From: Sedimentisphaerales bacterium
Lineage (GTDB): Bacteria > Planctomycetota > Phycisphaerae > Sedimentisphaerales > Anaerobacaceae
Direction: 5' to 3'
Length of the DNA stretch: 49,793 nucleotides
Assembly (NCBI GenBank): GCA_016936275.1
Contig: JAFGPJ010000114.1
Coordinates: 1-49,793, forward strand
Position 1 is the first letter of the stretch, and each line of letters starts with the position of its first letter. The position numbers and the translations under genes are program-made. Below, in pieces: positions 13,545-42,056 of the stretch. Below the pieces are notes generated by a model. The model was not told the DNA's origin. It made no database searches and saw only the letters and a program-made list of their open reading frames with translations.

Positions 13545-13565
13545 ATTAGTTACACGTTCTCCAGT

Positions 13566-14279
13566 CTAATTTTCGGTACTGTTGTCAGTTGACCAACTGG
13601 CAGAAGAAGATTTTTGAACGATTCTATCGAGCGATTTATTCACATCCTGTGACGTCCACTTAAACAGTAAAATATAGACGATGCCCCAAACAACGATTAG
13701 CCCTATCAAGGCAATTCCTATACCCACTAACTTCGCGCTTGGCGGCTCAACAAAGTCTCTTGAATCCACATTTTCATAGGCCTCCGGACAAACATGAGAT
13801 TTTGCGTCAGCATCTATCTGACCCGAGATGCGAGACGAAATTTTCGACATTAATTTGCGGATGTCTTCCGGTTGGCCGGTATAAATTCCCGTAAAGCCCA
13901 AGCCAATACATATGTAGAAAATTACCAGCCGCTTTGTTGCGGCATCGCTTGGGTCAGCCAAGGTCTCATCCAGCAGGTCAAAGAACTTTTCATCCCCGGC
14001 CAGTTGTTTTCTTTCACGGCCAAGCTCGGACCACTCAGCTGCAAAGTTCAGTTTGCTCTCTTTAATCATGAAATCAACGAAGAAAATAAGAGGCAATTCA
14101 ACCTTATCATACTGAGCGCTAAGCTCGGCAATGTCAGATGCGCTTGTTTTCATCTCTTCGCATATTTTCTTAATATCGTTGCGCACCTGGTCCATTTCCG
14201 GACTGCGTCCCTTTTGTGCCGCCCGGATAAGACGACAAACATACTGGAAAAGCGGCTCACACAATTCAGAAAGTGTCAT
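13566..14279 (-). CDS. tssL: T6SS membrane complex protein TssL (DotU family), no peptidoglycan-binding extension
   Basis: DotU-like cytoplasmic domain (LSELCEPLFQYVCRLIRAA..., FFVDFMI, VIFYICIGLGFTGIY). A single C-terminal TM helix, LVGIGIALIGLIVVWGIVYILLF, with only a ~30-aa tail. It sits between tssK and tssM. Confidence 0.82.
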   Translation of the reverse strand: MTLSELCEPLFQYVCRLIRAAQKGRSPEMDQVRNDIKKICEEMKTSASDIAELSAQYDKVELPLIFFVDFMIKESKLNFAAEWSELGRERKQLAGDEKFFDLLDETLADPSDAATKRLVIFYICIGLGFTGIYTGQPEDIRKLMSKISSRISGQIDADAKSHVCPEAYENVDSRDFVEPPSAKLVGIGIALIGLIVVWGIVYILLFKWTSQDVNKSLDRIVQKSSSASWSTDNSTEN

Positions 14280-21635: not shown

Positions 21636-23138
21636 TTAACTACCACTCTTGACCGAAGGCAGCTTGGATACCAGTCGCAGCGATACAGAAAGACCTTCGA
21701 GCTGGTAATGAGGTCTGAGGTAAAACTTGGCCGAGTAATAGCCAGGGTCTCCTTCCACCTCGTCAACTACAACTTCTGCCGCCGCCAGAGGATACTGGGC
21801 TTTAGTTTCCTCTGAGGCGTGCGGGTCGATTGTAACATATTTTGTTATCCATTTATTGAGCCATGTCGCCATATCCTCGCGCTCTTTGAAAGAGCCAATC
21901 TTATCCCGCACGAGGCACTTGAGGTAATGTGCGAACCGGCACGTTGCGAAAAGATACGGCAGCCTCGCCGCCAGATTTGCATTTGCGGTCGCATCGGGGT
22001 CGTCATATTCGGCCGGATTTTGCAGCGACTGTGCACCAATAAAACATGCAAAATCTTCGTTCTTCCAGTGCGATAGGGGCATCATGCCGTTTTTGGCTAA
22101 TTCCGCTTCTCTTCTGTCTGTTATACCAATCTCTGTCGGGCATTTCATATCAACACCGCCGTCATCGGTTGGGAAAGTATGGCAGGGAAGCCCTTCAACT
22201 AATCCGCCGCTCTCAACTCCGCGGATATTCGCACACCACCCAAACTGCTTAAACGAACGGTTGATATTCACTCCCATTGCATACGCCGCGTTGGTCCAGA
22301 GATATTTTGAATGGTCGCCTGCCGCCGTTTCTTCCTCAAAATCAAATTCTTCGCAGGGATTTGTCTTGGCGCCGTAAGGCAGTCTGCCGAGAAACCTTGG
22401 CATTGTTAAACCAACGTACCTGGCATCATCGGATTCACGCAGAGAACGCCACGGCGCATAGTCGGCCGTCTGGAAAATCTTCGTCAGGTCACGAGGATTG
22501 CTGAGCTCCTGCCAGGAATCCATGTTCATCAATGAAGGAGCGGCTGCGCTAATAAACGGCGAATGAGCTGCTGCCGCAATCTGGGCCACTCCGCCAAGTA
22601 TCTCAACATCCGGAGGACTATGGTCAAAATAGTAGTCACCGACGAGACAGCCGTATGGTTCACCGCCCGGCGAGCCGTATTCCTCCTCGTAGAGCTTTTT
22701 GAAAAGCGGGCTTTGGTCCCAGGCAGTGCCTTTGTACTTCTTTATCGTCTTTGCCAAATCGTTCTTGCTGATATCAAGCACACGTATCTTCAGTGTTTCG
22801 TCCGTTTCAGTGTTGTTTACCATATAATGCAGACCTCGCCATGAGCCCTCAAGCGCCTGGAAATCCTCGTGATGCATTATCATATTAATCTGTTCGGACA
22901 ACTTGCGGTCTATCTCGGCAATAATCGCCTCGATTGTCGTGACTGCATCTTCGGAAACGAGTGATGTCTCCGCCAGGGCCTGCTCAGCCAGGGTTCGCAC
23001 CGCCAAGCTAATGGTCTCCTTGACATGTTCCGATTTAGGCTTAAACTCCTTCTTAAGGAGCGACTCGAACTCATTCGGCTGTATGGCTACCCCCTCAGCA
23101 CCGGCGGCCTGTCTTTGTTGTTCTTGATTTTCAACCAT
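21636..23138 (-). CDS. tssC: T6SS contractile sheath large subunit TssC (VipB)
   Basis: 500 aa, with HHEDFQALEGSWRGLHYMV, MPRFLGRLPYG, YLWTNAAYAMG and the C-terminal YYSAKFYLRPHYQLEGLSVSLRLVSKLP, all typical of VipB/TssC. The start overlaps the tssB stop. Confidence 0.95.
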   Translation of the reverse strand: MVENQEQQRQAAGAEGVAIQPNEFESLLKKEFKPKSEHVKETISLAVRTLAEQALAETSLVSEDAVTTIEAIIAEIDRKLSEQINMIMHHEDFQALEGSWRGLHYMVNNTETDETLKIRVLDISKNDLAKTIKKYKGTAWDQSPLFKKLYEEEYGSPGGEPYGCLVGDYYFDHSPPDVEILGGVAQIAAAAHSPFISAAAPSLMNMDSWQELSNPRDLTKIFQTADYAPWRSLRESDDARYVGLTMPRFLGRLPYGAKTNPCEEFDFEEETAAGDHSKYLWTNAAYAMGVNINRSFKQFGWCANIRGVESGGLVEGLPCHTFPTDDGGVDMKCPTEIGITDRREAELAKNGMMPLSHWKNEDFACFIGAQSLQNPAEYDDPDATANANLAARLPYLFATCRFAHYLKCLVRDKIGSFKEREDMATWLNKWITKYVTIDPHASEETKAQYPLAAAEVVVDEVEGDPGYYSAKFYLRPHYQLEGLSVSLRLVSKLPSVKSGS

Positions 23139-23670
23139 TGGACTTCACCTCCTTACCGCCCTCGGCGGATTCAGCTCCTGGTTTCGGCGCAGAGGTCAGG
23201 GCCGTCAGTAATGCCTTGTCTTTGAGGACCTTGGCCATCAGTTCCTCCGCACCACTTTTACCATCCATATACGACAACAAATTTGAAAGATCCGTCCGAG
23301 CCTTCAACAGCTTGTTCAAAGCATCAACCTTACGCGCTACCGCCGCCGGGGAAAAATCATCCATGCTCTCAAACGTGATGTCAACGCTCATATTGCCCTC
23401 GCCGGTTAATGCGTTCGGGACCTGGAATGCTACTCTCGGCTTCATTGCTTTGAGTCGTTCGTCGAAATTGTCGACGTCGATTCCGAGGAATTTTCGGTCT
23501 GCAACCGACGGCAAGGCCTCGGCCGGCTTGCCGGACAAATCGGCCATCACGCCCATCACGAAGGGCAGATTGACCGTTTTCTCTGCGCCGTACAGTTCCA
23601 AATCATACTCTATCTGCACACGCGGTGCTCGGTTGCGAGCTATGAATTTTTGACTGCTTTTTTTCGCCAT
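23131..23670 (-). CDS. tssB: T6SS contractile sheath small subunit TssB (VipA)
   Basis: IARNRAPRVQIEYDLELYGAEKTVNLPFVMGVMADLSG is the canonical TssB N-terminus. It is 179 aa. Confidence 0.95.
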   Translation of the reverse strand: MAKKSSQKFIARNRAPRVQIEYDLELYGAEKTVNLPFVMGVMADLSGKPAEALPSVADRKFLGIDVDNFDERLKAMKPRVAFQVPNALTGEGNMSVDITFESMDDFSPAAVARKVDALNKLLKARTDLSNLLSYMDGKSGAEELMAKVLKDKALLTALTSAPKPGAESAEGGKEVKSNG

Positions 23671-29766: not shown

Positions 29767-32553
29767 ATGGCTGAAATCACACGCACATCTTTATTCGGCA
29801 AGCTAAACAGTTTAGGTTACAAGGCCATCGAAAGCGCCACGATTTTCTGCAAAATGCGGGGTAATCCGTACGTGGAGCTGGTGCACTGGCTGCACCAGAT
29901 TCTGCATCAGCAGGACTCAGACCTTCACCGTATAATACGGCACTTCGGCATAGACCCCTCCCGGCTCGCCAAGGATATGACAGAGGAATTGGACCGGCTG
30001 CCGAGGGGAGCGACGTCGATTTCGGACCTGTCGAGCCATCTGGAAGAGGCAGTCGAACGAGGGTGGGTTTACGGGAGCTTGTTATTCGGTGAATCACAGA
30101 TTCGCACAGGGCATCTGATAGTGGGCACCCTCAAGACAAGCGGCCTCAAGAACGTTCTTCTGCGGATATCGAAGGAGTTCGACAAAATCAAACTGGAACA
30201 GTTAACCGACGATTTCGCAAAAATTGTGGGGGGTTCTCCCGAGGAATCCCTGTCTGCGACCGACGGCACTTCGCTGCGAGCCGAGGGCGAAGCCGCCGGC
30301 GGCACCTCTGAAATGGCGCCAGCGGCAATGGGCAAACAAGAGGCATTGGCGAAATTTTCTGTGGACCTGACTGCAAAGGCACGAAGCGGTGAAATGGACC
30401 CTATTGTCGGTCGCGACGTGGAAATCCGCCAGATTATCGATATTCTGATGCGTCGTCGTCAGAACAACCCGATACTTACCGGCGAGGCGGGGGTCGGGAA
30501 AACGGCAGTGGTTGAGGGTTTCGCACAGCGGATTGCCGCCGGTGATGTGCCGCCGTCGCTAAAGGACGTAACACTACGTGTGCTCGATGTAGGGCTGCTT
30601 CAGGCCGGGGCCAGTATGAAGGGCGAATTTGAAAATCGGCTTCGACAAGTCATAGAAGAGGTTCAAAGCTCACCTAAACCAATTATTCTTTTCATAGATG
30701 AAGCACATACTCTTATTGGGGCCGGAGGTTCTGCGGGGACCGGCGACGCCGCCAACTTGCTTAAGCCGGCGCTGGCTCGCGGCACATTGCGGACGATTGC
30801 GGCCACCACCTGGGCGGAGTATAAAAAATACATCGAGAAAGACCCGGCGCTTACCCGCAGATTCCAGGTAGTCAAGGTTGAAGAGCCCTCGGAAGGTAAC
30901 GCTTTGATTATGATGCGAGCAGTGGCCTCTAACTTAGAGAAGCATCACCTCGTCCAGGTACTGGACGAGGCCCTCGATGCAGCGGTCCGTCTTTCGCACC
31001 GGTATATCCCTGAGCGTCAACTGCCGGACAAAGCGGTTAGCTTGACCGATACCGCATGTGCCAGGGTTGCCATAAGCCAGCATGCCGTCCCGCCAGAGCT
31101 GGAGGACTGCCGGCGTCGAATTCAGGCGCTTGAAACGGAGCTGGAAATCATTGGCAGAGAAACGTCAATGGGAATGGACCACCGTTCCCGCGAATCCGAA
31201 AACACAGAGAAACTCGAAACGGAACACAAAAGATTAGCCGAACTGGAAGGTCGCTGGTCAAAAGAAAAGGAGCTGGTCAATGCTGTCCTGGATATTCGGG
31301 CCAGGTTGCGCAAAACCGGCGGGGGCACTGTCGAAAAGACAGAGATTGCCGGAAAAGAATCTGAGAAAACCAAGGACCGTGCCAAGGACGTGCGTCAGGC
31401 CGATGCAAGTCAGCCGGCTGAGGTCGCAGCCGCAGGTTCAGCCGACGCGGAGGAAAAAGAGGACAGAGAAGGATTACTCAAACAACTCATTTCGCTGCAG
31501 AAACAGCTCAGGGAGCTGCAAGGAGAAAGGCCACTGATTCTTCCCTGTGTTGATGCAGTAGCGGTTGGTTCAGTGGTTGCCGATTGGACCGGGATTCCGG
31601 TCGGGGGAATGGTAAAGAATGATATCGAGGCGGTTCTGCATCTGGAGGACAAGCTTCGGCAGCGTGTAATAGGCCAGGACCATGCCCTGGCGGCAGTTGC
31701 CAAACGCATCAGAACATCCCGTGCCGGCGTGGAGAATCCGAACAAGCCGATTGCTGTGATGTTCCTGGTCGGTCCGAGCGGCGTGGGAAAAACCGAGACG
31801 GCGATTGCCTTGGCCGAAGCCCTGTACGGCGGTGAGAGCAACCTGATAACCATCAATATGAGTGAGTTCCAGGAAGCCCACACGGTTTCAACACTTAAGG
31901 GTTCGCCTCCCGGGTACGTCGGCTATGGCGAAGGAGGCGTCCTGACCGAGGCGGTGCGTCGGCGCCCTTATAGCATTGTTTTGTTAGACGAAGTCGAGAA
32001 GGCGCATCGCGACGTCCACGAGATATTTTTCCAGGTGTTCGACAAAGGCCGGATGGAAGACGCCGAAGGACGCCTGATAGATTTCAAGAATACAATTATT
32101 CTGCTGACCAGCAACGTCGGCACCGACCTCATTATGGAGATGTTCAAAGACCCGAAGCTGAGGCCTGATTCTGAAGGGATATGTAAGGCCCTCCGCAAGC
32201 CCCTGCTTAAGGTCTTTCCCGCCGCCCTTCTCGGTCGTCTCGTTGTCGTGCCCTACTACCCAATTAGTGATGAAACGATGCGGCTCATTATTCGCCTCCA
32301 GTTGAACCGAATTGGGCGTCGGACCAGGGAGAATCATAAGATACCGTTCAGCTTCGATGATAAAGTCGTGGAGCTTATTGCCAGCCGTTGCACTGAGCTC
32401 GAAAGCGGAGCTCGGATGGTGGACGCCATTCTGACCAATACGCTGCTTCCGGAAATCAGCCAGGAGCTCCTGACCCGGCTGATGGAAGGTAAAATCGCTA
32501 AACGCGTGCATATAGGGACCAAAGACAGCGAGTTTACTTATTCGTTCGACTAA
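29767..32553 (+). CDS. clpV: T6SS AAA+ sheath-recycling ATPase ClpV (TssH)
   Basis: 928 aa with a Clp N-domain. Two AAA+ modules carry Walker A motifs GEAGVGKTA and GPSGVGKTE, and Walker B motifs ILFIDEAH and IVLLDEVEKAH. A coiled-coil middle insert is present. It lies directly upstream of vgrG. Confidence 0.93.
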   Translation: MAEITRTSLFGKLNSLGYKAIESATIFCKMRGNPYVELVHWLHQILHQQDSDLHRIIRHFGIDPSRLAKDMTEELDRLPRGATSISDLSSHLEEAVERGWVYGSLLFGESQIRTGHLIVGTLKTSGLKNVLLRISKEFDKIKLEQLTDDFAKIVGGSPEESLSATDGTSLRAEGEAAGGTSEMAPAAMGKQEALAKFSVDLTAKARSGEMDPIVGRDVEIRQIIDILMRRRQNNPILTGEAGVGKTAVVEGFAQRIAAGDVPPSLKDVTLRVLDVGLLQAGASMKGEFENRLRQVIEEVQSSPKPIILFIDEAHTLIGAGGSAGTGDAANLLKPALARGTLRTIAATTWAEYKKYIEKDPALTRRFQVVKVEEPSEGNALIMMRAVASNLEKHHLVQVLDEALDAAVRLSHRYIPERQLPDKAVSLTDTACARVAISQHAVPPELEDCRRRIQALETELEIIGRETSMGMDHRSRESENTEKLETEHKRLAELEGRWSKEKELVNAVLDIRARLRKTGGGTVEKTEIAGKESEKTKDRAKDVRQADASQPAEVAAAGSADAEEKEDREGLLKQLISLQKQLRELQGERPLILPCVDAVAVGSVVADWTGIPVGGMVKNDIEAVLHLEDKLRQRVIGQDHALAAVAKRIRTSRAGVENPNKPIAVMFLVGPSGVGKTETAIALAEALYGGESNLITINMSEFQEAHTVSTLKGSPPGYVGYGEGGVLTEAVRRRPYSIVLLDEVEKAHRDVHEIFFQVFDKGRMEDAEGRLIDFKNTIILLTSNVGTDLIMEMFKDPKLRPDSEGICKALRKPLLKVFPAALLGRLVVVPYYPISDETMRLIIRLQLNRIGRRTRENHKIPFSFDDKVVELIASRCTELESGARMVDAILTNTLLPEISQELLTRLMEGKIAKRVHIGTKDSEFTYSFD

Positions 32554-32598
32554 TACCTGTGATATTAATTCAAGGAATACGTTTAAAGAACATGGCTG

Positions 32599-32627
32599 TT
32601 GAAAACAGGCGGCTTTCCGCGTAAGAT
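32599..32627 (+). promoter_or_regulatory. Possible internal promoter for vgrG (TTGAAA-17-TAAGAT)
   Basis: ttgaaa at 32599-32604, a 17-nt spacer, and taagat at 32622-32627, located in the 98-nt clpV-vgrG gap. The implied leader is very short. Confidence 0.3.
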
Positions 32628-32651
32628 GAAGTTTATTAGGCGTTAATCCCA

Positions 32652-34742
32652 ATGGCAATAACTCAGGAAAACAGGGAGATTGCGATAGCGACCCCTTTAG
32701 GGGATGACGTTCTTTTGCTTAAAAGCATTTCGGGCACAGAGCAGCTTGGCAGGCCATTTGAGTTTCATCTTGAACTGGCCAGCGAGGATAACCAGATTAA
32801 ACCTCAGGACATTGTCGGCCAGAACGTGACAATCCGGCTCAACCTTTTCGAAAAAGACAAGATTCGCTATTTCAACGGCTATATCAGCCGATTTGTCCAG
32901 ACGGCCGGGGCCGGCCGATTGGCAGGATACCGCGCAACCGTCGTGCCATGGCTGTGGTTTTTGACCCGAACCGCTGATTGTCGTATATTCCAGAAAATGA
33001 CGGTTCCCGATATTATCAAGCAGGTTTTTCGAGACCTTGGATTTACCGATATTGAGGACGCCCTCAGCAGCAGCTATCGAACCTGGGAGTATTGCGTTCA
33101 ATACCGCGAGACGGACTTCAACTTTGTCAGCCGACTTATGGAGCAGGAGGGAATATATTACTTTTTCAAGCACGAGAACGGCAAACACTCGCTGGTCCTG
33201 GCCGATTCGGCCAGCGCGCATCAGCCATATCCCGATTATGACCAAATCAAATACCGGCCCCACGGCAGTCAGGTCGATAACGACAAGTGCATTTCCGACT
33301 GGATAGTTGAAACCTGTGTTCAGCCCGGTTCGTATGCCCTGAAGGATTTTGACTTCAAGAACACTAAAAAGGACCTCCAGTCAAGGGCGAACTTGATTCA
33401 ACAACACGCCGCGGCGGACTTCGAGATATACGATTACCCCGGCGAATACACCGAATCCCCTGACGGCGACGAATATGCCAAGAAACGTATCGAGGAGATG
33501 CACACGCAGTATGAGGTGGCCACGGCCGATTCCGAAGCCAGGGGCATTAGTGCCGGCTGCACGTTCAACTTCATCGAGCATCCCCGCGACGACCAGAACA
33601 AGCAATACCTTATTACCTCTGCAAGCTATAATATAGACGCCGGCGACTTCTACTCGCAGGAAAAAGGCGGCGCCTGTGCCTATTCGTGCAGCTTTGCTGC
33701 TATCGATGCAACGCAGCAGTTCCGTTCAATGCGCATCACTCCCAAACCCTCAATTCCAGGCCCACAAACGGCTATGGTTGTCGGTCCATCGGGTGAAGAG
33801 GTCCACACCGACGAATATGGCCGGGTCAAGGTGCAATTCCACTGGGACAGGCACGGTAAAGCCGACGAAAACAGCTCCTGCTGGATTAGGGTGGCGCAGG
33901 TCTGGGCCGGCAAGAAATGGGGCGCGATGTATATCCCGCGAATCGGCCAGGAGGTTATTGTTGAGTTCCTCGAGGGCGACCCGGACCAGCCGATTATTAC
34001 GGGCCGGGTCTATAACGCCCAGGCAATGCCGCCTTACGACCTGCCGACCAATAAGACGATGTCAACGCTCAAATCCGACTCCAGCAAGGGCAGCGGGGGC
34101 TTCAACGAAATCCGCTTCGAGGACAAAAAGGGTGATGAGCAAATCTTCATACACGCCGAAAAAAACGAGGATATCAGGGTCAAAAACGACTGTCTCGAAT
34201 GGATTGGAAATGAGCGGCATTTGATAGTTAAAAAAGACCAGCTCGAACAAGTCGATGGCGATAAGCACCTGACGGTCAAGGGAGACCAGAACGAAAAGAT
34301 AAACGGAACCATATCCGTTGAGGCGGGTATGGATATGCAGCAGAAGGTTGGTATGAAGCACGCCCTTGATGCAGGGATGGAGATTCACCTAAAGGGCGGA
34401 ATGAAGGTAATTGTCGAAGCCGGAATGCAGCTAACGCTCAAAGGAGCTGGTGGCTTTGTTGATATCGGCCCAGCAGGCGTAACGATACAAGGCAACCTAG
34501 TGAATATAAATAGCGGCGGCGCTGCTGGCGCCGGCTCGGGCTGCTCGCCTGATGCCGCCAAGGCCCCGAAAGAAGCCGATAAAGCCGACCCGGGCGAAAA
34601 GCTTGAGCCGGCAAAACCGCCCAAACCGCCAACGCCCGTTACTTTCAGCCCGCAGGCGACAACTATGCAACAGGCGGCTAAGGACGGCACACCATTTTGT
34701 GAGGAATGTGAAAAGGCAAAGAAACAACAGCAAGCCGGTTAA
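32652..34742 (+). CDS. vgrG: T6SS spike protein VgrG (TssI) with a Lys/Pro-rich C-terminal tail
   Basis: IATPLGDDVLLLKSISGTEQLGRPFEFHLELAS is the gp27-like N-terminus. Also present are GRVKVQFHWDR and WIRVAQVWAGKKWGAMYIPRIGQEVIVEFLEGDPDQPIITGRVYN (the gp5 OB-fold signature), followed by beta-helix repeats. The tail is APKEADKADPGEKLEPAKPPKPPTPV...GTPFCEECEKAKKQQQAG. Confidence 0.93.
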   Translation: MAITQENREIAIATPLGDDVLLLKSISGTEQLGRPFEFHLELASEDNQIKPQDIVGQNVTIRLNLFEKDKIRYFNGYISRFVQTAGAGRLAGYRATVVPWLWFLTRTADCRIFQKMTVPDIIKQVFRDLGFTDIEDALSSSYRTWEYCVQYRETDFNFVSRLMEQEGIYYFFKHENGKHSLVLADSASAHQPYPDYDQIKYRPHGSQVDNDKCISDWIVETCVQPGSYALKDFDFKNTKKDLQSRANLIQQHAAADFEIYDYPGEYTESPDGDEYAKKRIEEMHTQYEVATADSEARGISAGCTFNFIEHPRDDQNKQYLITSASYNIDAGDFYSQEKGGACAYSCSFAAIDATQQFRSMRITPKPSIPGPQTAMVVGPSGEEVHTDEYGRVKVQFHWDRHGKADENSSCWIRVAQVWAGKKWGAMYIPRIGQEVIVEFLEGDPDQPIITGRVYNAQAMPPYDLPTNKTMSTLKSDSSKGSGGFNEIRFEDKKGDEQIFIHAEKNEDIRVKNDCLEWIGNERHLIVKKDQLEQVDGDKHLTVKGDQNEKINGTISVEAGMDMQQKVGMKHALDAGMEIHLKGGMKVIVEAGMQLTLKGAGGFVDIGPAGVTIQGNLVNINSGGAAGAGSGCSPDAAKAPKEADKADPGEKLEPAKPPKPPTPVTFSPQATTMQQAAKDGTPFCEECEKAKKQQQAG

Positions 34743-34768
34743 TAAGTTAGTTGGTCGGAAAGAATTTG

Positions 34769-35317
34769 ATGGATGAAAAAGCTGTAGCTCAGTCGCTTCT
34801 TACAAATCTGTTCTCGCAGCCACAAACTAATGTTTTTGCGATTTTAGACGGAGCTTCGGTTGAGCAGTTGCCGCAGTTACTCTGGGAATACGAGCCGCAG
34901 AACGTTTGCCTGTATCGTGGCGAGCTCGAGCCGGATATGGCCTCAGTCGCGCCGTATTTAGTCAAACTGGAGTTTGACCACCGTTTCACAAAATTAGTTT
35001 GCGAAAAGGGCTGGGGCAAACACTGGGGCATATTCGCCATAACGCCCGCTGATGTGGATATTCGAGCACTCCGTCAGCATTTTCGTAAGTTCTTAATGGT
35101 ACTCAGTCCTGAGAATAAAACCTTGTATTTTCGCTACTATGACCCGCGGGTACTGATGGTTTATCTGCCGACCTGCAACGCCGAAGAAATGAAGACCCTT
35201 TTTGGTCCCGTGAGTAACTATATTGTAGAGGATGAGGATTCGTCTGTGCTCCTGCGGCTGTCGTATGATGGTGAGAAAGTCCGAACAGAAAAAATATCTT
35301 TTACTCAGCCGAGATAA
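34769..35317 (+). CDS. DUF4123-family T6SS effector adaptor/chaperone (Tap/Tec type)
   Basis: NVFAILDGASVEQLPQLL...CLYRGELEPDMASVAPYLVKL and LYFRYYDPRVLMVYL fit the DUF4123 pattern as I remember it. It lies immediately downstream of vgrG. The ATG at 34769 is preferred over the track TTG at 34751. Confidence 0.75.
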   Translation: MDEKAVAQSLLTNLFSQPQTNVFAILDGASVEQLPQLLWEYEPQNVCLYRGELEPDMASVAPYLVKLEFDHRFTKLVCEKGWGKHWGIFAITPADVDIRALRQHFRKFLMVLSPENKTLYFRYYDPRVLMVYLPTCNAEEMKTLFGPVSNYIVEDEDSSVLLRLSYDGEKVRTEKISFTQPR

Positions 35318-35331
35318 GCGGCAGAAAAAAT

Positions 35332-36087
35332 ATGTTAAAAATTCGCAAAGAACAAAATGACGAGCTGGCAAAAGTCGCGCTCAAACGATTTGAGGACGAT
35401 ATGGTCATCCATATCAAAAAGTATTTTCCTAAGTACTATGAAATTATGGGGGAACCTACAGTCCGAAAGGTAATCCAATATAGCATCGAAAAGGCAGAAA
35501 CTTATGGCTTCACAACAGAGCGGGATGTATGCCTGTATATAAATTTAGTATTTCTGTTAGGCAGTAATTTCGATACAGACCTGCAGATTCCCTGGGCGGC
35601 GGCAACCCTCAAAGATGAGACGATAACGGACTCAGTCATACGAATTAACAAAATCTATGAAATCGCGATGGATTATCTTGACCGGGTAAACGGCAAGAAT
35701 AATCTTTACCTTGCATTAGCACTTCGCAAAATCCGCGAAGTTCCTTTTGGTGAGTTTTCAAACGCGGTCTTGGAAAATGTTGACCAAAAGGTGATTAGCC
35801 AGCTCAAAAACATTTGGCCGGAGAAATGCCAGCACCTGGGGAATTCGATTTCGCACCAACTGGTACAGCGTGGTATCGAATCTGCACGCCGTTACAATAT
35901 CACAGGAGAGAAAGGTCTCGTCTTATATATTGGCTTAATGTTTATGCTGGGAAGTGGGTTTGACCACGACCCGCAGTTTACCTGGACAACTGCGGTCTTG
36001 AAGAACAAGGATTTAATAGAACAGACGCCAAAGATTGAGCGGCTTTACACCGAGAGTATGACCTTCCTCAACAAATGGTTGACTTGA
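35332..36087 (+). CDS. Hypothetical protein made of two homologous ~115-aa helical repeats (251 aa)
   Basis: The internal duplication is visible by eye. Repeat 1: KAETYGFTTERDVCLYINLVFLLGSNFDTDLQIPWAAATLKDETI. Repeat 2: SARRYNITGEKGLVLYIGLMFMLGSGFDHDPQFTWTTAVLKNKDL. It has no signal peptide or TM helix and starts 14 nt after the DUF4123 gene. Confidence 0.6.
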   Translation: MLKIRKEQNDELAKVALKRFEDDMVIHIKKYFPKYYEIMGEPTVRKVIQYSIEKAETYGFTTERDVCLYINLVFLLGSNFDTDLQIPWAAATLKDETITDSVIRINKIYEIAMDYLDRVNGKNNLYLALALRKIREVPFGEFSNAVLENVDQKVISQLKNIWPEKCQHLGNSISHQLVQRGIESARRYNITGEKGLVLYIGLMFMLGSGFDHDPQFTWTTAVLKNKDLIEQTPKIERLYTESMTFLNKWLT

Positions 36088-36116
36088 ATTACAAACGGAA
36101 GCAGTAAGGAATACTT

Positions 36117-37064
36117 ATGCCGGAAGGATGTAGCGATAAAGATGGAGCAAAAACAGCTGCTGAAAAAAAACCAGCAACGTCTGTTGGTGCAACGGAAAAA
36201 GGATGTCCTCTCAAGCCCAAACTGGTTAATATCACTGTAACGAAGAACGCTGCTCAAACCAATGTTACTGGCGCCAAAAACTGGGCGTGTATCAAGAAAG
36301 CAACCGATGATGTGATTGTGGAGGCAACGACCAGCCCAAACACCGAAGACGCCTGGAAACAAATCAAGTGGTCGGGTGACTCAGGCGCCGCCGTTCCAGG
36401 TAAACTCAATCAAAGGAAATTATCTCGCTCCGATAGTAAAAAGTACCACGTCGAAGCCGAATTGGGAGGGGTAAAAGACGATTTATACGTTTGGGTTCTC
36501 TGGGCTGAAGTCACTATCCTCACAAGCGGCACCACACCCAAAAATGCTGTTCAATTTGGGGCAGATTATGATGGCACAGAAAATCTAGGCGCCAAATCCT
36601 ATAATGGAGGCAAAGAGGCAAGAGGAAAGATAGTGCCCGTTGCTAAAATCTCTCCAGCCGGAGTTTACAACATCGTTAAGTCTGGTTGGGCCTTTAAGCG
36701 GGAGCGTATGAGCCATGATTGGGATGATGGTAACAAAACCAAACCTGGAAATAGTACTAGTGATTACTGGAATACAGCTTGGGTCGATGACACGTCGTAT
36801 GCCGTATATCAGAAATTAACGCCGGATGCCGATGATAAAATCTATGACAGGGATGCTCCAAACATTGCAGCTTTTGGGACCAATGATGCTGAAACATATA
36901 ATAATTTTCAACAATGGGTCGAATGGGGTGGAGACGTCTGTTCGGACAAAGCCGGTTGGTATTGGAAAGGCCGATGGGACAAATCAAAGGCGCCCCAGGT
37001 AACGCTGAAGGACGTCGGTACAGGAAGTATAGCCCTTCCCAACAAGTCGCACTTCCATCCATAG
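36117..37064 (+). CDS. Hypothetical 315-aa protein, candidate T6SS cargo effector (no recognisable catalytic motif)
   Basis: An intact ORF with a taaggaat RBS-like sequence. It has no signal peptide or TM helix. The composition is Trp/Asp/Gly-rich and looks beta-type (WVLWAEVTILTSG, SHDWDDGNKTKPGN, WYWKGRWDKSK). It sits between an adaptor gene and a lipoprotein gene. Confidence 0.5.
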   Translation: MPEGCSDKDGAKTAAEKKPATSVGATEKGCPLKPKLVNITVTKNAAQTNVTGAKNWACIKKATDDVIVEATTSPNTEDAWKQIKWSGDSGAAVPGKLNQRKLSRSDSKKYHVEAELGGVKDDLYVWVLWAEVTILTSGTTPKNAVQFGADYDGTENLGAKSYNGGKEARGKIVPVAKISPAGVYNIVKSGWAFKRERMSHDWDDGNKTKPGNSTSDYWNTAWVDDTSYAVYQKLTPDADDKIYDRDAPNIAAFGTNDAETYNNFQQWVEWGGDVCSDKAGWYWKGRWDKSKAPQVTLKDVGTGSIALPNKSHFHP

Positions 37065-37102
37065 AATCCGTTTATTGGGAGAAAGGAAAAGGTTGTATTA
37101 TT

Positions 37103-37714
37103 ATGGGCTTTCGGGCAAGCGTTTTAAGTGTTATTGTTCTGAATATTTTTATGGTGGGTTGCCATGCTAACAACGCCAAGAAAGGAGACGTGAAAGTGAT
37201 AGAACAGGAAATGATGAACTTAATGAGAAGAATGGATACGTTAGACGAACGTTCCAAGATGACACTTCTCTCTAAAGTAGATGAGCAGCGCAATGAACTG
37301 CTTGGCGTGCTTCTCAAACACATAGGTACGAGTGAATCCAAAAACGTGCAAGCAGCTGCGATATATCTTATTGGGCGCCACCGTCTCTCAGACGGCGTTC
37401 AGGAGCTTATTCAGCGTATCGATTTTACGCCTGGAGGACAACCAACGCGCGGGCCTGAGCCGCTTTGGGAGCAATATCCGGCTATGGAGGCGTTAATAAC
37501 CATTGGATGGTCATCTGTACCGGCTGCGGTCGAGCTCCTCGCAAAGGATACAAATGATGTTCGTCGTGATTTGGCGGTAAAAGTTATCCGTTACGCTACG
37601 GATGCAGAAGTTGCTAAATTTATTTTGGAACGGGCTCATAAGATTGAGAGCGACCCAACTCGCAAAGCTAATTTACAAAATGCCTTGGTACGTCTTGACA
37701 AGCTACCACAGTGA
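37103..37714 (+). CDS. Lipoprotein with HEAT-like repeats, candidate periplasmic immunity protein
   Basis: The ATG at 37103, preceded by ggagaaaggaaaagg, gives MGFRASVLSVIVLNIFMVGC, a lipobox (FMVG|C). HEAT/PBS-lyase-like repeats follow (NVQAAAIYLIGRHRLSDGVQELIQRI and VPAAVELLAKDTNDVRRDLAVKVIRYA). The track ORF start at 36914 would overlap the upstream gene in another frame and is rejected. Confidence 0.7.
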   Translation: MGFRASVLSVIVLNIFMVGCHANNAKKGDVKVIEQEMMNLMRRMDTLDERSKMTLLSKVDEQRNELLGVLLKHIGTSESKNVQAAAIYLIGRHRLSDGVQELIQRIDFTPGGQPTRGPEPLWEQYPAMEALITIGWSSVPAAVELLAKDTNDVRRDLAVKVIRYATDAEVAKFILERAHKIESDPTRKANLQNALVRLDKLPQ

Positions 37715-37795
37715 AAACCAAGTGTTTGCGTTAAAGAGAAGTGACAACGATTAAGGTTTGCCCAGCCATCCACCATGAAACTCATCTGAGGGCAT

Positions 37796-37824
37796 TTGTC
37801 AAGATGATATGTTTTTGATATAAT
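37796..37824 (+). promoter_or_regulatory. Strong sigma70-type promoter candidate for the PAAR gene (TTGTCA-17-TATAAT, TGn extended -10)
   Basis: ttgtca at 37796-37801, a 17-nt spacer ending in tga, and a consensus tataat at 37819-37824. An aaggag RBS sits at about 37856-37861, and the ATG is at 37870. Confidence 0.55.
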
Positions 37825-37869
37825 TGGTAGAGCCCAAGAAAAAAAAGGCAGATAGAAGGAGAATATAAG

Positions 37870-38169
37870 ATGCCTCCTGCAGCAAGAGTTGGTGATATGC
37901 ACGTCTGCCCGATGCAAACACCGGGCGTACCGCCCATTCCGCACGTCGGCGGGCCAATTTTGCCGCCGGGCTGCCCGACCGTGCTGATTGGTATGATGCC
38001 CGCCGCACGGGTTGGTGATATGGCCACCTGCGTCGGGCCGCCGGATGTGATAGCCAAAGGGTCCGCTACGGTAATGATTGGAATGATGCCCGCCGCACGC
38101 ATAGGCGATACGACCGCTCACGGCGGCTCTATCGTTGTCGGCTGCCCTACCGTCATGATTGGCGGCTGA
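37870..38169 (+). CDS. Minimal PAAR-domain spike-tip protein (99 aa)
   Basis: There are three PAAR motifs: MPPAARVGDMHVCP, GMMPAARVGDMATCVGP and GMMPAARIGDTTAHGG. The protein ends GCPTVMIGG and has no extension domain. Confidence 0.93.
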   Translation: MPPAARVGDMHVCPMQTPGVPPIPHVGGPILPPGCPTVLIGMMPAARVGDMATCVGPPDVIAKGSATVMIGMMPAARIGDTTAHGGSIVVGCPTVMIGG

Positions 38170-38186
38170 CGGCGATTACCCCACAA

Positions 38187-39752
38187 CTATCGCCAGGGGC
38201 CGGCTAATGGGGCGAGGGGAGAGGAAATCGACTGAAAACGGGGGAGACGAACCGAATCCCGGCCTTTTACGGAAACTACCGGCATAAGCCCCTTGTCAAT
38301 AAGGATACCAAAAGCCCTCTCCGTGAGGATTGTCTCAGCACAGGGGGTAACGTGCTTTTGGCCATCGGACTCGTATATGTGCATCGGCAAGCCCGACAGG
38401 TCGCAGCCGAGGCCGTTTGTAAGGTTCCAGCCGAATTCACTAAAGGCCTGGGCCAAGAGGCAGGCACATAAGCCAGCGGAATTGCCCCATAGATATTGCT
38501 CGTGACCGGTCAAAGGCGAAAATTCCTCAAAACTGAACCGCTCAACGGGGTCGGTCTTGCTGCCGTAAGGCAGGCGCAGCAGGAACCGGGGCAGCAATAG
38601 GCCGATATAGGCGGCCTCAGGCGTGCCTCGAAGCTGCTGCCATAATTTTAGGGCGTCCGGCCTGGATTGCCATTGCCAGTCATTCGGGTCGGGCGTGGCG
38701 GCAAGCGACGGGCAGCCGGCAAAGTGAGAATCAGCACAAGCGACCAATGGCGCACCGGCGGCCTGGGCAATTTGGGCAAGCTGATGCAGCAAGGCGATAT
38801 CCTCAGAGGTCTGGTCAAAGGTGTAGCAGCCGACCAAAAGGGCGTAGGGATTTGCACCCGGGACGCCGACGCTTCGCTCGACAATAAGCCGATATATACC
38901 TGCTGATTGCAGACCCTCCTGCGAGGCCAAATCCGCTACCAGTTCCGCCTTGCTGATGTCGATTATATATATTTTGAGCGTTTCGTTTGTTTCGACCTGG
39001 CTGACTATGAATCGAAGCAACAGCCATGCCGCCTCAAGCTCCTTGAAGTCCGGCTGATGCAGAATCGCCCGCATCTGGCCGCTGATGGCCTGGTCAACCT
39101 GGGCAACAAGCTCTGGCTGCTGCGGGTCGGTGGCGGGAACGATGTAGGGCTTTACGACCTCGGCAATGAGCTTTTCTATATTGATTTGTCGGCCTGTCGG
39201 ACTGAAAGACGGTTTTTTACCCGGCTGCTTTCCAAGCAGTCGCTCGATTGTATCAGCGTCGGGTTCTGCTTTTGCCGGAGTGCCTGGTGTTTCTCCGGCC
39301 TCTAATTTGCCGGCTTCCTGACCACCCATTAGCCATGACCGCACCTGCGAAGCCGCCTCGGCAAACGTGGCTGGGTCCTGAAGGCGATTTCGGAGCATCT
39401 TTAGCTTCTGAAAGATTTCCAGACGGTCGAAAATCCGGTCCGGGTGAAAGTCGGTTAGCTCTCCAAATCCAATTGCTATACGAGAACCATCCCCACCGCC
39501 TACGGGTATATTAAGCTCGCAGCCAAGCTGCTTAGGCAGATTCTCCAGGTTGTCAACGTCAACCGCTATTCGCCTACTGGCAGCAAGCAAAGGACCGGTT
39601 TCGCACAAGCCGCGGTTGCCCCGTCCGCTGAAATCGGAAAGAACGGCTATGCAAAATGGCGTGTTTTCCATGGCCTTGCGGGGTGCAAATGACGTTTGAG
39701 CGCCTAATTCAAATTCAAAATCCATCCCCCTCGAAGAGCTCTGTATAGGCAT
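38187..39752 (-). CDS. Single-chain TssB-TssC-like contractile-sheath paralog lacking the TssC C-terminal region (521 aa)
   Basis: Residues ~30-130 align with the cluster's own TssB: TPFCIAVLSDFSG / LPFVMGVMADLSG; VDVDNLENL / IDVDNFDERL; IGFGELTDFHPDRI / ITFESMDDFSPAAV. Residues ~165-510 align with TssC: HQPDFKELEAAW / HHEDFQALEGSW; ETNETLKIYIIDISKAEL / ETDETLKIRVLDISKNDL; LLPRFLLRLPYGSKTDPVERFSFEE / TMPRFLGRLPYGAKTNPCEEFDFEE; YLWGNSAGL / YLWTNAAYA; SEFGW / KQFGW. The ORF stops where TssC still has about 115 more residues. Confidence 0.82.
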   Translation of the reverse strand: MPIQSSSRGMDFEFELGAQTSFAPRKAMENTPFCIAVLSDFSGRGNRGLCETGPLLAASRRIAVDVDNLENLPKQLGCELNIPVGGGDGSRIAIGFGELTDFHPDRIFDRLEIFQKLKMLRNRLQDPATFAEAASQVRSWLMGGQEAGKLEAGETPGTPAKAEPDADTIERLLGKQPGKKPSFSPTGRQINIEKLIAEVVKPYIVPATDPQQPELVAQVDQAISGQMRAILHQPDFKELEAAWLLLRFIVSQVETNETLKIYIIDISKAELVADLASQEGLQSAGIYRLIVERSVGVPGANPYALLVGCYTFDQTSEDIALLHQLAQIAQAAGAPLVACADSHFAGCPSLAATPDPNDWQWQSRPDALKLWQQLRGTPEAAYIGLLLPRFLLRLPYGSKTDPVERFSFEEFSPLTGHEQYLWGNSAGLCACLLAQAFSEFGWNLTNGLGCDLSGLPMHIYESDGQKHVTPCAETILTERAFGILIDKGLMPVVSVKGRDSVRLPRFQSISSPLAPLAGPWR

Positions 39753-40091: not shown

Positions 40092-42056
40092 ATGTCGTCT
40101 TCTGATACCTATAACCGTATTAAAACAGTACCTAATGGCTATGTCGCCATACCCATCACAGAAGACCAAAAATCGGCGATATTAAAAATATGCGTCCTGA
40201 TAAGACCCGACCCCGACCCTGTTGGCGGTCACCTCGTCGTCATCCGGGACACAACAGACGCCAGGGTGTTTATGGGGTGCGTCATTGACATTTGCGGATG
40301 CATTCATGAGTGGCTGGAATTGTGGGTTCAGAATACCGGGCAATTAATTGACAGGGCGTCTGCATATCGCCAGTCGCTTTCAAACGCCATGCTGGATGAC
40401 CGATGGCGTCAGCAATGTCAGGCATTTGAACAGCTCGATGAGGGAGTGGTGGTGAAAACCGGCTGGGAGTCCGAGCATCCCCTGCCGATGTTCTTAGACA
40501 TCTCTACATGTTCGCCGCTCCATCCGACTGATACTAATTCCGGCGCACCGTGGAAGCTGTGCAAGGATGAAGGTTTGCTACAGCAGAAGGGCCTGCCGAG
40601 CTATTGCGGTTCGCTGCATCGCTACCTATACATACCGGCGGCGGGCACTGATTCACAGTTTGCTCCCGTTACCCCGGGGGCACCAACGAACGCTTTCACA
40701 AAACCGATGTCCGAGATTTGCGGCGACCCCCGGCAGATTATCCCCTTTAATCCCGGAGCGGGTCTGATGCTGGTAAAGAAACACAATCCCATCGGGCTGG
40801 AGACCTTCATTGATATTCTAAGCGGCAGTATATGGGACGGGCTAAAACATGGAAGGTCGGTCCTTGACCTCGGCGAACAGGTTGACGCGCTGAGGAAGGA
40901 CAAGACCATTTTGATTGCGAATGGCCGACTTTTCCTGGACTCTCAGGGCCGGCGAGGGCGACTGGTCGAGACATTTCACTTAAAGCTTCGACTGCTCGCT
41001 GACATTGTATCTTCCGTTCATTCGATGGTGCATCATCTCCAACGACCGCTTCTAAACATCAATCCGAACAACTGGCAGATTAAGCTCGGTGAGCCCGGAC
41101 GTGGGCTGCCTTTCTTATGGACGGCCAAGCCGGTGCTTAGCGACCCAGGTGACGCAATTCCACTGGCAATCGAAAAAACCGACGTGCAATATTATCTGCA
41201 ATCGTCCGCTCCCGGAACATCGATATATCGGCCGGCGATTATTTCTCTGCCAACCAGAGGACATGCATCCGTCCGTATAAGGCAGGTCTTGCCCGACACC
41301 GACGTTGCAATAATCGTTGAGGGTACATTTACAACCCAGGAACGTATCGAGATAGCCAGTCGCGATCTCGTCTGGTTTCGACTTAACCTTACTCATGGCA
41401 GCGTAAATCTGTATGCACATATCGAAGCGGACTCGGCGATGGCGGCCGGTGAGTGGCGATTTCGAACTGTCACACAGAGCGTTAATGATGTCGAGGTTTC
41501 GGATTTGCACGCCGCCGAAGGAGTGCCCATGCCAGGCATTCCGTTCGAGATTATACCGCTTTTGAGCACCCCCTGTGACCTGTACTCACTGGCGGTCGTA
41601 GCAGTGAGGGTTCTTCTTGTTGATGATACTACGACTTTGCCCGTGGCACTTGATGAAATTCTCAGTCTTTCACGCCAAACACGGACTGATTCAGATGCGT
41701 CCACCAGCTTGGATGCCCGTATTAGCGATATATTCAGCAAGGACAACCGATGGCTTGAATCGCTGGGGCCGCACCATTTAGCTTTTGACAAAATGACCCC
41801 TGACGAAGCTTTTGGTCTGATTCCACACGAGTTGTGGTGGAAGACAGTGGCCATAATCCTGCGGATGTTCCCAGGGGCGGGGCCGGAAAGTGAATGCAAA
41901 GATTTTGGCGACGCCCAACAAGGGGGTCTCCACAAGGTTTTTGAACGAACTATGGCCGATCTGGATAACCTTATATTAAGAACTCGCGGCCTTATAATAA
42001 CGGACTGGAAATCAAACCAGGAAGTTGCCGATGTCATACAAAGGTATCTGTCGTAA
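40092..42056 (+). CDS. Hypothetical 654-aa cytoplasmic protein, T6SS-linked; possibly contains a highly degenerate kinase-like fold
   Basis: An intact ORF with no TM helix or signal peptide. LRLLADIVSSVHSMVHHLQRPLLNINPNNWQIKLG loosely resembles a kinase alpha-E/catalytic-loop segment, and PCDLYSLAVVAVRVLL resembles kinase subdomain IX. The spacing between them is atypically long, so the resemblance is weak. Confidence 0.55.
   Translation: MSSSDTYNRIKTVPNGYVAIPITEDQKSAILKICVLIRPDPDPVGGHLVVIRDTTDARVFMGCVIDICGCIHEWLELWVQNTGQLIDRASAYRQSLSNAMLDDRWRQQCQAFEQLDEGVVVKTGWESEHPLPMFLDISTCSPLHPTDTNSGAPWKLCKDEGLLQQKGLPSYCGSLHRYLYIPAAGTDSQFAPVTPGAPTNAFTKPMSEICGDPRQIIPFNPGAGLMLVKKHNPIGLETFIDILSGSIWDGLKHGRSVLDLGEQVDALRKDKTILIANGRLFLDSQGRRGRLVETFHLKLRLLADIVSSVHSMVHHLQRPLLNINPNNWQIKLGEPGRGLPFLWTAKPVLSDPGDAIPLAIEKTDVQYYLQSSAPGTSIYRPAIISLPTRGHASVRIRQVLPDTDVAIIVEGTFTTQERIEIASRDLVWFRLNLTHGSVNLYAHIEADSAMAAGEWRFRTVTQSVNDVEVSDLHAAEGVPMPGIPFEIIPLLSTPCDLYSLAVVAVRVLLVDDTTTLPVALDEILSLSRQTRTDSDASTSLDARISDIFSKDNRWLESLGPHHLAFDKMTPDEAFGLIPHELWWKTVAIILRMFPGAGPESECKDFGDAQQGGLHKVFERTMADLDNLILRTRGLIITDWKSNQEVADVIQRYLS

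Follow-up and report, generated by a model that had tools for sequence, protein, structure and literature searches.

A probable split DUF4123 adaptor and an exchangeable, putative effector–immunity cassette in a VgrG-linked type VI secretion cargo module

To our knowledge, type VI secretion system (T6SS) cargo effectors lack a universal secretion signal, and finding them, together with the mechanism by which they are chosen, is an open problem. Here we describe a cargo module from a 49,793-nucleotide stretch of DNA of a Sedimentisphaerales bacterium (contig JAFGPJ010000114.1, assembly GCA_016936275.1), referred to below as the window. The module is linked to a VgrG spike gene, and we consider it likely that it combines a split adaptor of the Tap type with a polymorphic effector–immunity cassette.

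The closest described systems use DUF4123 adaptors. According to PMC11582642, the N-lobes of these proteins bind the C-terminal helix-turn-helix of VgrG, and a published Tap consists of an N-lobe of about 177 residues followed by a variable helical effector-binding C-lobe. The structure of Tap3 is treated in PMC12909789. In the TecT/co-TecT system of Pseudomonas aeruginosa (effector TseT), DUF4123 is split over two open reading frames (ORFs), as PMC11582642 reports from Burkinshaw 2018.

The window encodes a complete T6SS, with TssB, TssC, Hcp, TssF, TssG, TssK, TssM, an ImpA_N (TssA-type) protein and a ClpV-like AAA+ ORF of 928 aa. The six genes of the module lie 3′ of ClpV, all on the + strand. 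The first encodes the VgrG spike (696 aa, 32652–34742), recognised by Phage_GPD (1.5e-101), Gp5_trimer_C (5.2e-34) and Phage_base_V (2.6e-16). The DUF4123 gene follows immediately after the VgrG end at 34742 (34769–35317 from an ATG, giving 182 aa; a TTG at 34751 gives 188 aa; PF13503, 1.8e-31). Next come a 251-aa all-helical protein (fam251; 35332–36087), a 315-aa protein (fam315; 36117–37064) and an exported HEAT-repeat protein of 203 aa (37103–37714). A PAAR spike tip of 99 aa (37870–38169; PAAR_motif, 1.5e-24) closes the module. The initial annotation had read the order VgrG, DUF4123, 251 aa, 315 aa, HEAT lipoprotein and PAAR, and the ORFs and Pfam matches bear it out; VgrG itself lies just 5′ of the interval 34769–38169 given there. 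It had also seen no recognisable signature in the 251-aa and 315-aa proteins, and Pfam, NCBIfam and PDB sequence searches with both came back empty. Hits to NEDD4 HECT (E = 0.04) and DM9 (4 of 55 members) in the fam315 and fam251 searches were at chance level and were discarded. Relatives were collected as 30 loci reached through fam315 and 55 metagenome loci reached through fam251 (numbered L below). Their six-frame ORFs were searched with hidden Markov models of the window genes and of alignments A1 and A2. A metagenome-assembled genome (MAG) of Planctomycetota, L013, is the nearest genome match. The order vgrG, DUF4123, effector, immunity is seen again in unrelated phyla.

The DUF4123 protein of the window is reduced to an N-lobe. 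Its PF13503 domain spans residues 28–147; there is a weak Tla1 match, and the protein aligns with residues 73–176 of Tap3 (PDB 9r8g_B). The helical C-lobe is absent. Its counterparts across the 55 fam251 loci are mostly 175–200 aa long. The C-terminal tail of VgrG (SPQATTMQQAAKDGTPFCEECEKAKKQQQAG; 34647–34739, + strand) is, on the strength of its conservation, a putative helix-turn-helix dock for the DUF4123 protein. The VgrG end of the window, SPQATTMQQAAKDGTPFCEECEKAKK, is conserved across the fam251 loci, and the pattern SPQAxxLxxAAxxGTPFCExCExA occurs in the window and in most VgrGs encoded ahead of a short DUF4123 and fam251. By analogy with the published N-lobes, the DUF4123 protein would dock on this tail.

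Judged from gene association and architecture, the most likely role of the 251-aa protein is that of a co-adaptor, a separately encoded half of a split adaptor that binds the effector. Its AlphaFold model (pLDDT 92) is all-helical, with 12 helices. Self-comparison reveals a tandem duplication of units of about 120 aa (repeat 1, approximately 35332–35706; repeat 2, approximately 35707–36084; + strand), the halves being 30% identical (E = 4e-24). One-repeat versions of 117–133 aa also occur. The only invariant residues are G77, K165 and G207, and nothing looks catalytic. Neither single-sequence nor profile searches found a Pfam, NCBIfam or PDB sequence match for fam251, and 57 members scanned singly gave no consistent domain match.

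The position of the fam251 gene is more informative. The usual order in the 55 fam251 loci is VgrG, DUF4123 (175–200 aa), fam251, a variable 2–3 kb and PAAR. Only 2 of these loci contain fam315, so fam251 is neither an immunity protein for fam315 nor a chaperone specific to it. Across the 30 fam315 loci, fam251 is present wherever fam315 adjoins VgrG, DUF4123 or PAAR and is lacking in every locus with a signal-peptide-delivered or solitary fam315; a short DUF4123 precedes fam251 wherever VgrG or DUF4123 is present. On this gene-order evidence, fam251 thus appears to belong with the short DUF4123. The bodies of the proteins encoded directly after it fall into 24 cargo families, and examples assigned by this position are found at L031 6786–7688, L034 6089–7354, L037 6518–8086 and L039 6786–8486. 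Where a locus has two cargo genes (L036, L042, L044), each has its own fam251 copy. In L031, fam251 retains 85% protein identity with that of the window although cargo and partner are replaced. Fusions of fam251 to DUF4123 were not found among the 120 matches listed or the proteins collected. In L001 (912–5261) and L002 (154–7129), a fam251–fam315–HEAT trio occurs with no VgrG or DUF4123 within the fetched region. This trio adjoins one or two group II intron reverse transcriptases and ParDE/PIN toxin–antitoxin genes, a gene content that suggests a mobile or disrupted context.

The effector of the window begins with a leader (MPEGCSDKDGAKTAAEKKPATSVGATEKGCPLK, residues 1–33; 36117–36215, + strand) that is predicted to be disordered from its pLDDT, below 50 over residues 1–25 of the AlphaFold model. 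In an N-terminal alignment, leaders of 20–35 residues with the form MPxGC...Lys-rich...CPL are common to cargo of unrelated families. The pattern is an early Cys, a Lys/Ser/Pro-rich linker and a Cys-Pro pair just ahead of the first β-strand, as in the window (MPEGCSDKDGAKTAAEKKPATSVGATEKGCPLKP), L034 (MPKGCSNKKGATKAAKKKPTTACKKKEQTCPL) and L036 (MPLSGCERRREVGKVGKKKPTKPVKKKEEPCPC). The pair ‘CP’ occurs within the first 95 aa of 44 of 56 cargo-slot proteins, as compared to 244 of 1875 background ORFs from the same loci (odds ratio 24.5, the sequences not being independent). The fam315 copies that have no VgrG, DUF4123 or fam251 nearby begin at profile position 34–35 and have no leader. The leader region has no Pfam match in the window effector or in 20 other scanned cargo proteins. 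Those 20 contain no known toxin domain in Pfam, only a weak LysM and a transthyretin-like domain. The gene after the cargo encodes a hydrophobic N-terminal segment, read as a signal peptide or lipobox, in 33 of 47 cases, as compared to 20% of background ORFs. The cargo families, at least 24 in number, and these partner genes look like an uncharted repertoire of putative effectors and immunity proteins. The hosts are Planctomycetota, Acidobacteriota, Deltaproteobacteria and other environmental lineages. Since 24 unrelated cargo families share only the leader, and fam315 outside the T6SS lacks both leader and co-adaptor, it is the leader that fam251 would read. A leader shared by 24 cargo families and held by fam251 would let one accessory family serve many toxins.

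Cysteines recur on both sides of the proposed contact. The VgrG tail has a CxxC (PFCEECEKA) and the effector leader has two Cys (MPEGC...GCPL). VgrG tails that end early with one Cys (PFCDI, PFCDT, PLCDT) occur with Ser/Pro-rich, Cys-richer leaders and with another fam251 subtype (L057, L058, L059). From these sequences, a metal site or disulfide common to the VgrG tail and the leader is conceivable. An electrostatic match between leader and adaptor was considered and is unsupported by the net charges of the window proteins. Some fam315 homologs (P0010, P0003, P0040, P0058 and others) have leaders that open with MG and go on to a Cys and a polybasic stretch (MGTCDKQGNKEAAKKKG, MGKKKKRRKKRKNK). 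Their superficial likeness to eukaryotic acylation-plus-polybasic membrane-targeting motifs is probably a coincidence, since many other leaders start MPxGC or MC.

The DNA behind the leader is exchangeable. Comparison of the window with L031 by blastn gives 87% identity over 32001–36193 (VgrG, DUF4123, fam251 and the opening 26 codons of the effector gene), no alignment over 36194–37869, and 84% identity from 37870, the start of PAAR. The corresponding stretch of L031 encodes another cargo, of 300 aa, and a lipoprotein of 309 aa. L036 and L007, which are 96% identical, diverge 28 codons into the cargo and become homologous again 13 nt before PAAR. DNA homology between L042 and L034 breaks 21 codons into the cargo; between L039 and L050, detectable homology ends at the end of fam251, before the leader. 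The breaks in the first three pairs, where homology returns at PAAR or slightly before it, show, at the level of DNA comparison, that the effector body and the putative immunity gene are a cassette replaced by recombination. In the window the cassette comprises the effector body past the leader, the immunity gene and the spacer to PAAR (36194–37869, + strand), with PAAR as its right boundary. It is delimited by blastn and by the GC content at third codon positions (GC3). GC is 0.41–0.48 across 35.2–37.8 kb and 0.50–0.59 in the flanks. The GC/GC3 values are 0.43/0.50 for the 251-aa gene, 0.47/0.44 for the 315-aa gene and 0.47/0.43 for the lipoprotein gene, as compared to 0.53/0.63 for VgrG and 0.63/0.64 for PAAR. 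Such a low GC3 is in keeping with a cassette imported from elsewhere. The initial annotation had judged the 251-aa gene AT-richer by eye, and the computed GC (0.43, with VgrG at 0.53 and PAAR at 0.63) agrees. Its proposal of an exchanged cassette stands for 36194–37869, but not for the 251-aa gene, which lies outside and is part of the 87% DNA identity shared with the different-cargo locus L031.

We read the 315-aa protein as the effector, since it behaves as a polymorphic-toxin C-terminal domain; this is supported by the domain architectures and gene neighbourhoods of its relatives. A word-indexed search gave 152 homologs and HMMER gave 552 at E up to 0.001, all annotated as ‘hypothetical’. 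No Pfam or NCBIfam domain matches fam315, and none is consistent among 55 relatives scanned singly; PDB has no sequence match. Family models of known T6SS effectors and markers (Tle, Tae/Tge, nucleases, NADases, MIX, Rhs) do not match it either. The domain ends no more than 15 residues from the C-terminus in 198 of 207 full-domain proteins. In 108 of the 207, as in the window, it has a short N-terminal extension (up to 60 residues) and no signal peptide. Other architectures place a signal peptide and 60–250 residues with no assigned domain in front of it; known domains were looked for in these mid-size extensions and none was found. In the fragment P0315, the end of an Rhs core (...NRYAYVENDPINSTDPHGL, also given as ...YAYVENDPINSTDPHGL) lies 5′ of fam315. 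Fusions of fam315 to PAAR or VgrG were not found.

The clearest case is L024, a Sec-type polymorphic toxin locus from a Candidatus Angelobacter MAG (9311–13798). Two adjacent secreted paralogs share 56% identity across the N-terminal 246 residues, beyond which they differ: the protein that terminates in fam315 has a HEAT homolog encoded after it, while its paralog carries Ntox16 (9.1e-18) at the end, with a DUF6714 gene behind. The fam315 cassette is therefore interchangeable with a known toxin domain on a common N-terminal scaffold. Upstream in this locus are a gene for a trypsin-like protease and an ORF that resembles a protein kinase. L015 contains two tandem fam315–HEAT pairs. The initial annotation had named the 315-aa protein the best effector candidate, and the C-terminal position in 198 of 207 proteins, the Ntox16 slot, the Rhs end and the tandem pairs strengthen that choice. 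It had added that homologs mainly outside T6SS contexts would speak against it; instead, 108 of 207 are stand-alone like that of the window and the rest are Sec- or Rhs-type fusions, the pattern to be expected of a polymorphic toxin domain.

The AlphaFold model of fam315 (pLDDT 92) is all-β. It consists of the leader, an Ig-like β-sandwich at approximately residues 35–135 and a Trp/Asp-rich β-sandwich core at approximately residues 140–310; the body of 282 residues contains 14 Trp. Of the two sandwiches, the second is the conserved core; L027 and P0323 are reduced to profile positions 117–310, and the partner gene is still present in L027. Among 198 full-length domains, the conserved polar residues are D225 (98%), D246 (100%, in IYDxDAP) and E259 (91%); N263, Y243, S276, K171 and R195 are also well conserved. 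E259, Y261, N263, W267 and E269 occupy alternating positions of a single long predicted strand, so their side chains would be expected on the same side.

The HEAT-repeat protein is probably the immunity protein that protects the producer, given its pairing with fam315. It starts with MGFRASVLSVIVLNIFMVGC followed by HANN, a hydrophobic segment with a lipobox-like MVGC (Cys20); the lipobox region reads ...VLNIFMVGC|H. HEAT_2 scores 22.3 bits on the window protein alone, below the cut-off of 27.7. At the family level the assignment is firm: HEAT_2 matches 13 of 16 members (best 2.8e-8) and the family profile matches alphaRep HEAT-like repeat proteins (2.5e-12), so that the HEAT repeats noted in the initial annotation hold. 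Of 25 distinct loci, 17 have a HEAT homolog directly 3′ of fam315, irrespective of how fam315 is delivered; Sec-type loci with the partner beside fam315 include L022, L024 and L027. Nearly all homologs have a signal peptide or a lipobox. The lipobox reported earlier corresponds to the lipobox-like MVGC of the window protein, but its Cys is not kept in the family: a plain signal peptide is seen in several homologs, and in two the called ORF lacks one. The exported HEAT partner and the toxin-cassette signatures place the probable target in the periplasm or envelope. The earlier argument from a periplasm-facing immunity protein to an envelope-acting toxin fits, so far as the genes can tell, a partner that travels with fam315 and is nearly always exported.

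Together these data suggest the following mechanism. The DUF4123 protein (188 aa), which has the conserved N-lobe only, would dock on the C-terminal tail of the VgrG encoded upstream, by analogy with Tap proteins. The duplicated helical bundle of 251 aa would supply the missing effector-binding C-lobe as a separate polypeptide, in the manner of co-TecT, as gene association and architecture indicate. It would grip the disordered leader of the effector, about 30 residues long, and not the toxin fold. The 315-aa effector may then ride the spike into a neighbouring cell and act in its periplasm or envelope. Its most plausible action there, put forward with low confidence, would be to bind or cleave a glycan, for example peptidoglycan or a different polysaccharide of the envelope. 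As candidate site we propose, equally tentatively, the conserved acidic/aromatic face formed by D225, D246, E259, Y261, N263 and W267. That the core of fam315 binds or cleaves an envelope glycan through this face is in our view somewhat doubtful. The strict gene pairing suggests that, in the producer's periplasm, the exported HEAT protein binds the toxin and neutralises it. Recombination replaces the effector body and the immunity gene, as the DNA comparison shows, with one breakpoint just past the leader and the other at PAAR or slightly upstream of it.

Several observations weigh against this model, the first of them concerning the co-adaptor. Foldseek with the fam251 model found no significant match; its alignment to the Tap3 chain 9r8g_B is local (114 columns, rmsd 2.8 Å, probability 0.82) and non-significant (E = 6.2). 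The structural link between fam251 and a Tap C-lobe, which compares a predicted model with Tap3, is thus only a lead. The leader is low-complexity and variable, and 12 of 56 cargo-slot proteins have no ‘CP’. In favour of the model, leaders beside one-repeat fam251 tend to be longer (median CP position 46 versus 31, p = 0.04) and have an extra helical-looking segment. The covariation of leader length with co-adaptor type is weak at this p value, the sequences not being independent. The linkage of leader and fam251 could come from a recombination hot spot instead of binding. HEAT partners were not detected beside five stand-alone fam315 copies (L008, L018, L019, L021, L023). Two HEAT homologs (L010 11302–11817 and L028 8597–9115) have no signal peptide in the called ORF and start MIE(E/K)Q; this could reflect a start-codon or assembly problem, or they could be truly cytoplasmic variants. 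Finally, a fam315 fold with no enzyme match, in a domain that also ends giant surface proteins, would fit an adhesin or lectin as well.

In the first alternative, the 251-aa protein would assist DUF4123–VgrG as a general chaperone or in assembly and would not be a leader reader, the leader serving, for example, for membrane or periplasm targeting in the prey or as a recombination site. A low-complexity, basic, Cys-containing leader, with MG..C-polybasic variants that resemble membrane-targeting motifs, would suit such a role. The weak covariation with fam251 type and left recombination breakpoints directly past the leader are also in line with it. We nevertheless think it unlikely. The pairing of each cargo gene with its own fam251 gene in multi-cargo loci speaks for a stoichiometric role close to the cargo, the absence of the leader coincides exactly with that of fam251, and the published precedent, co-TecT, is an effector-binding half.

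The second alternative is that the 315-aa protein is not a toxin but a secreted glycan-binding or adhesive module, with the HEAT protein as its partner, receptor or anchor. Foldseek searches of PDB and BFVD with the fam315 model returned only tandem-Ig, Big_2-CBM56 and ‘carbohydrate-binding’ proteins, at TM-scores of 0.37 or less, and no enzyme. The query was the whole two-domain model, not split by domain, which partly explains the low scores. This structure prediction and Foldseek search, proposed as a check in the initial annotation, thus gave no enzyme for the 315-aa protein and nothing significant for the 251-aa protein. Two β-sandwiches with such matches, and no recognised catalytic motif, would fit an adhesive module. 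The domain also terminates adhesin-like signal-peptide giants of up to 2030 aa that carry Kelch, HYR, LamG, PKD and Ig domains, and in L022 the first Ig-like subdomain of fam315 is present in three extra copies together with TIG domains. Against this stand the slot that fam315 shares with Ntox16 behind a common N-terminal half in the L024 paralogs, the Rhs core end before fam315 in P0315 and the tandem effector–partner duplicates of L015. The T6SS cargo slot, with its excess of hydrophobic N-terminal segments in the next gene (33 of 47 versus the 20% background), points the same way. The conservation of D225 (98%), D246 (100%) and E259 (91%) suggests an active or metal site over plain adhesion. 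We therefore regard a non-toxin role as distinctly improbable.

The third alternative, which makes the 251-aa protein either a further effector or a cytoplasmic immunity protein dedicated to the 315-aa protein, has very little chance of being correct: its place between adaptor and effector, its lack of a known domain, its GC of 0.43 and the 251–315–HEAT trios with no nearby VgrG in L001–L003 would allow it, but the protein precedes 24 unrelated cargo families, nearly always after a short DUF4123, keeps its 85% identity in L031 despite the replaced cargo and partner, is absent where fam315 is signal-peptide-delivered or stand-alone, has only G77, K165 and G207 invariant with no conserved catalytic-looking residues, and would duplicate an immunity role that already fits the gene after the effector.

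Three further genes lie around the module. The first (38187–39752, − strand) encodes a 521-aa protein with a weak match to VipA/TssB (residues 27–132) and with the VipB/TssC N-terminal domain (residues 214–504), but without the VipB_2 C-terminal domain; normal TssB and TssC are encoded at 21636–23670. Homologs of 519–546 aa are found convergent after PAAR in L031 (9022–10587), L034 (8940–10499), L042 (7767–9326), L039 and L067. The second (40092–42056, + strand; 654 aa) has no Pfam or NCBIfam match, and is conserved in position in L006 (3115–5079), with L052 and L079 showing similar N-termini. It appears to be an unannotated component tied to this type of T6SS. The third (42665–47062, + strand; 1465 aa) has only a C-terminal FGE-sulfatase domain recognised (1.1e-28), and a 1468-aa homolog occupies the equivalent place in L006.

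The locus points to a modular choice of cargo, through a split DUF4123 adaptor with a stand-alone effector-binding family and a short shared leader. If this is correct, fam251 and the leader would be practical effector markers, already flagging 24 cargo families, and the leader could become a handle for loading foreign proteins onto the T6SS spike. The fam315–HEAT pair would be a widespread, uncharacterised toxin–immunity pair delivered by T6SS, Sec-dependent giants and Rhs, and worth biochemical study. A bolder reading, which we advance as a tentative possibility, is that the leader is a true T6SS loading signal read by a dedicated helical co-adaptor family that plugs into an N-lobe-only DUF4123. 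Such a portable ‘leader plus reader’ would put dozens of unrelated toxins on one spike and imply a large unannotated effector repertoire in environmental phyla, with a mode of action for the fam315 β-sandwich toxin unlike that of any known T6SS effector class.

We found no paper on fam251, the leader or this arrangement, in a literature coverage that is not exhaustive. The Tvp/DUF2169 accessory proteins were considered and are unrelated to the fam251 module. The described Tap/TEC (DUF4123) modules, such as Tap6–Ptx2, Tap14–RhsP2, Tap3–Tke5 and Tap-1–TseL (PMC11582642, PMC12909789), have the same vgrG, DUF4123, effector, immunity order. They share with the window a conserved VgrG C-terminal tail and a recognised DUF4123 domain (1.8e-31 here). 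The DUF4123 protein of the window is an N-lobe only, whereas published Taps have their own variable helical C-lobe. That C-lobe co-evolves with one effector family, whereas here one accessory family goes with many effector families. The closest precedent is TecT/co-TecT, where adjacent genes likewise encode a DUF4123 half and a separate effector-binding protein; in the window the same division is suggested by the genes. TecT is reported to dock on a PAAR extension, whereas the likely dock in the window is the VgrG tail. As compared to co-TecT, fam251 has a tandem-repeat architecture, or a single repeat of about 120 aa in some versions, and accompanies a leader shared by many cargo families.

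The MIX, FIX, RIX, PIX and WHIX domains (RIX, PMC10435454; WHIX, PMC12135965) resemble the leader as a constant N-terminus before variable toxins that is usable as a marker. The leader differs from them as a short, predicted-disordered and unfolded Lys/Ser/Pro-rich peptide, bounded by Cys and ending in CP(L), and it co-occurs with a dedicated co-adaptor gene. Polymorphic toxins of the Rhs-CT and Ntox types share with fam315 the use of one C-terminal domain with varied delivery parts, the adjacent partner gene and cassettes displaced by recombination. In contrast to those toxins, fam315 has an unannotated two-β-sandwich fold with no enzymatic relative, and its partner is an exported HEAT-repeat protein. 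What appears to be new here, as read from the genes, is the unannotated co-adaptor family, the short disordered leader, the toxin fold with no characterised relative and the environmental hosts in which they occur.

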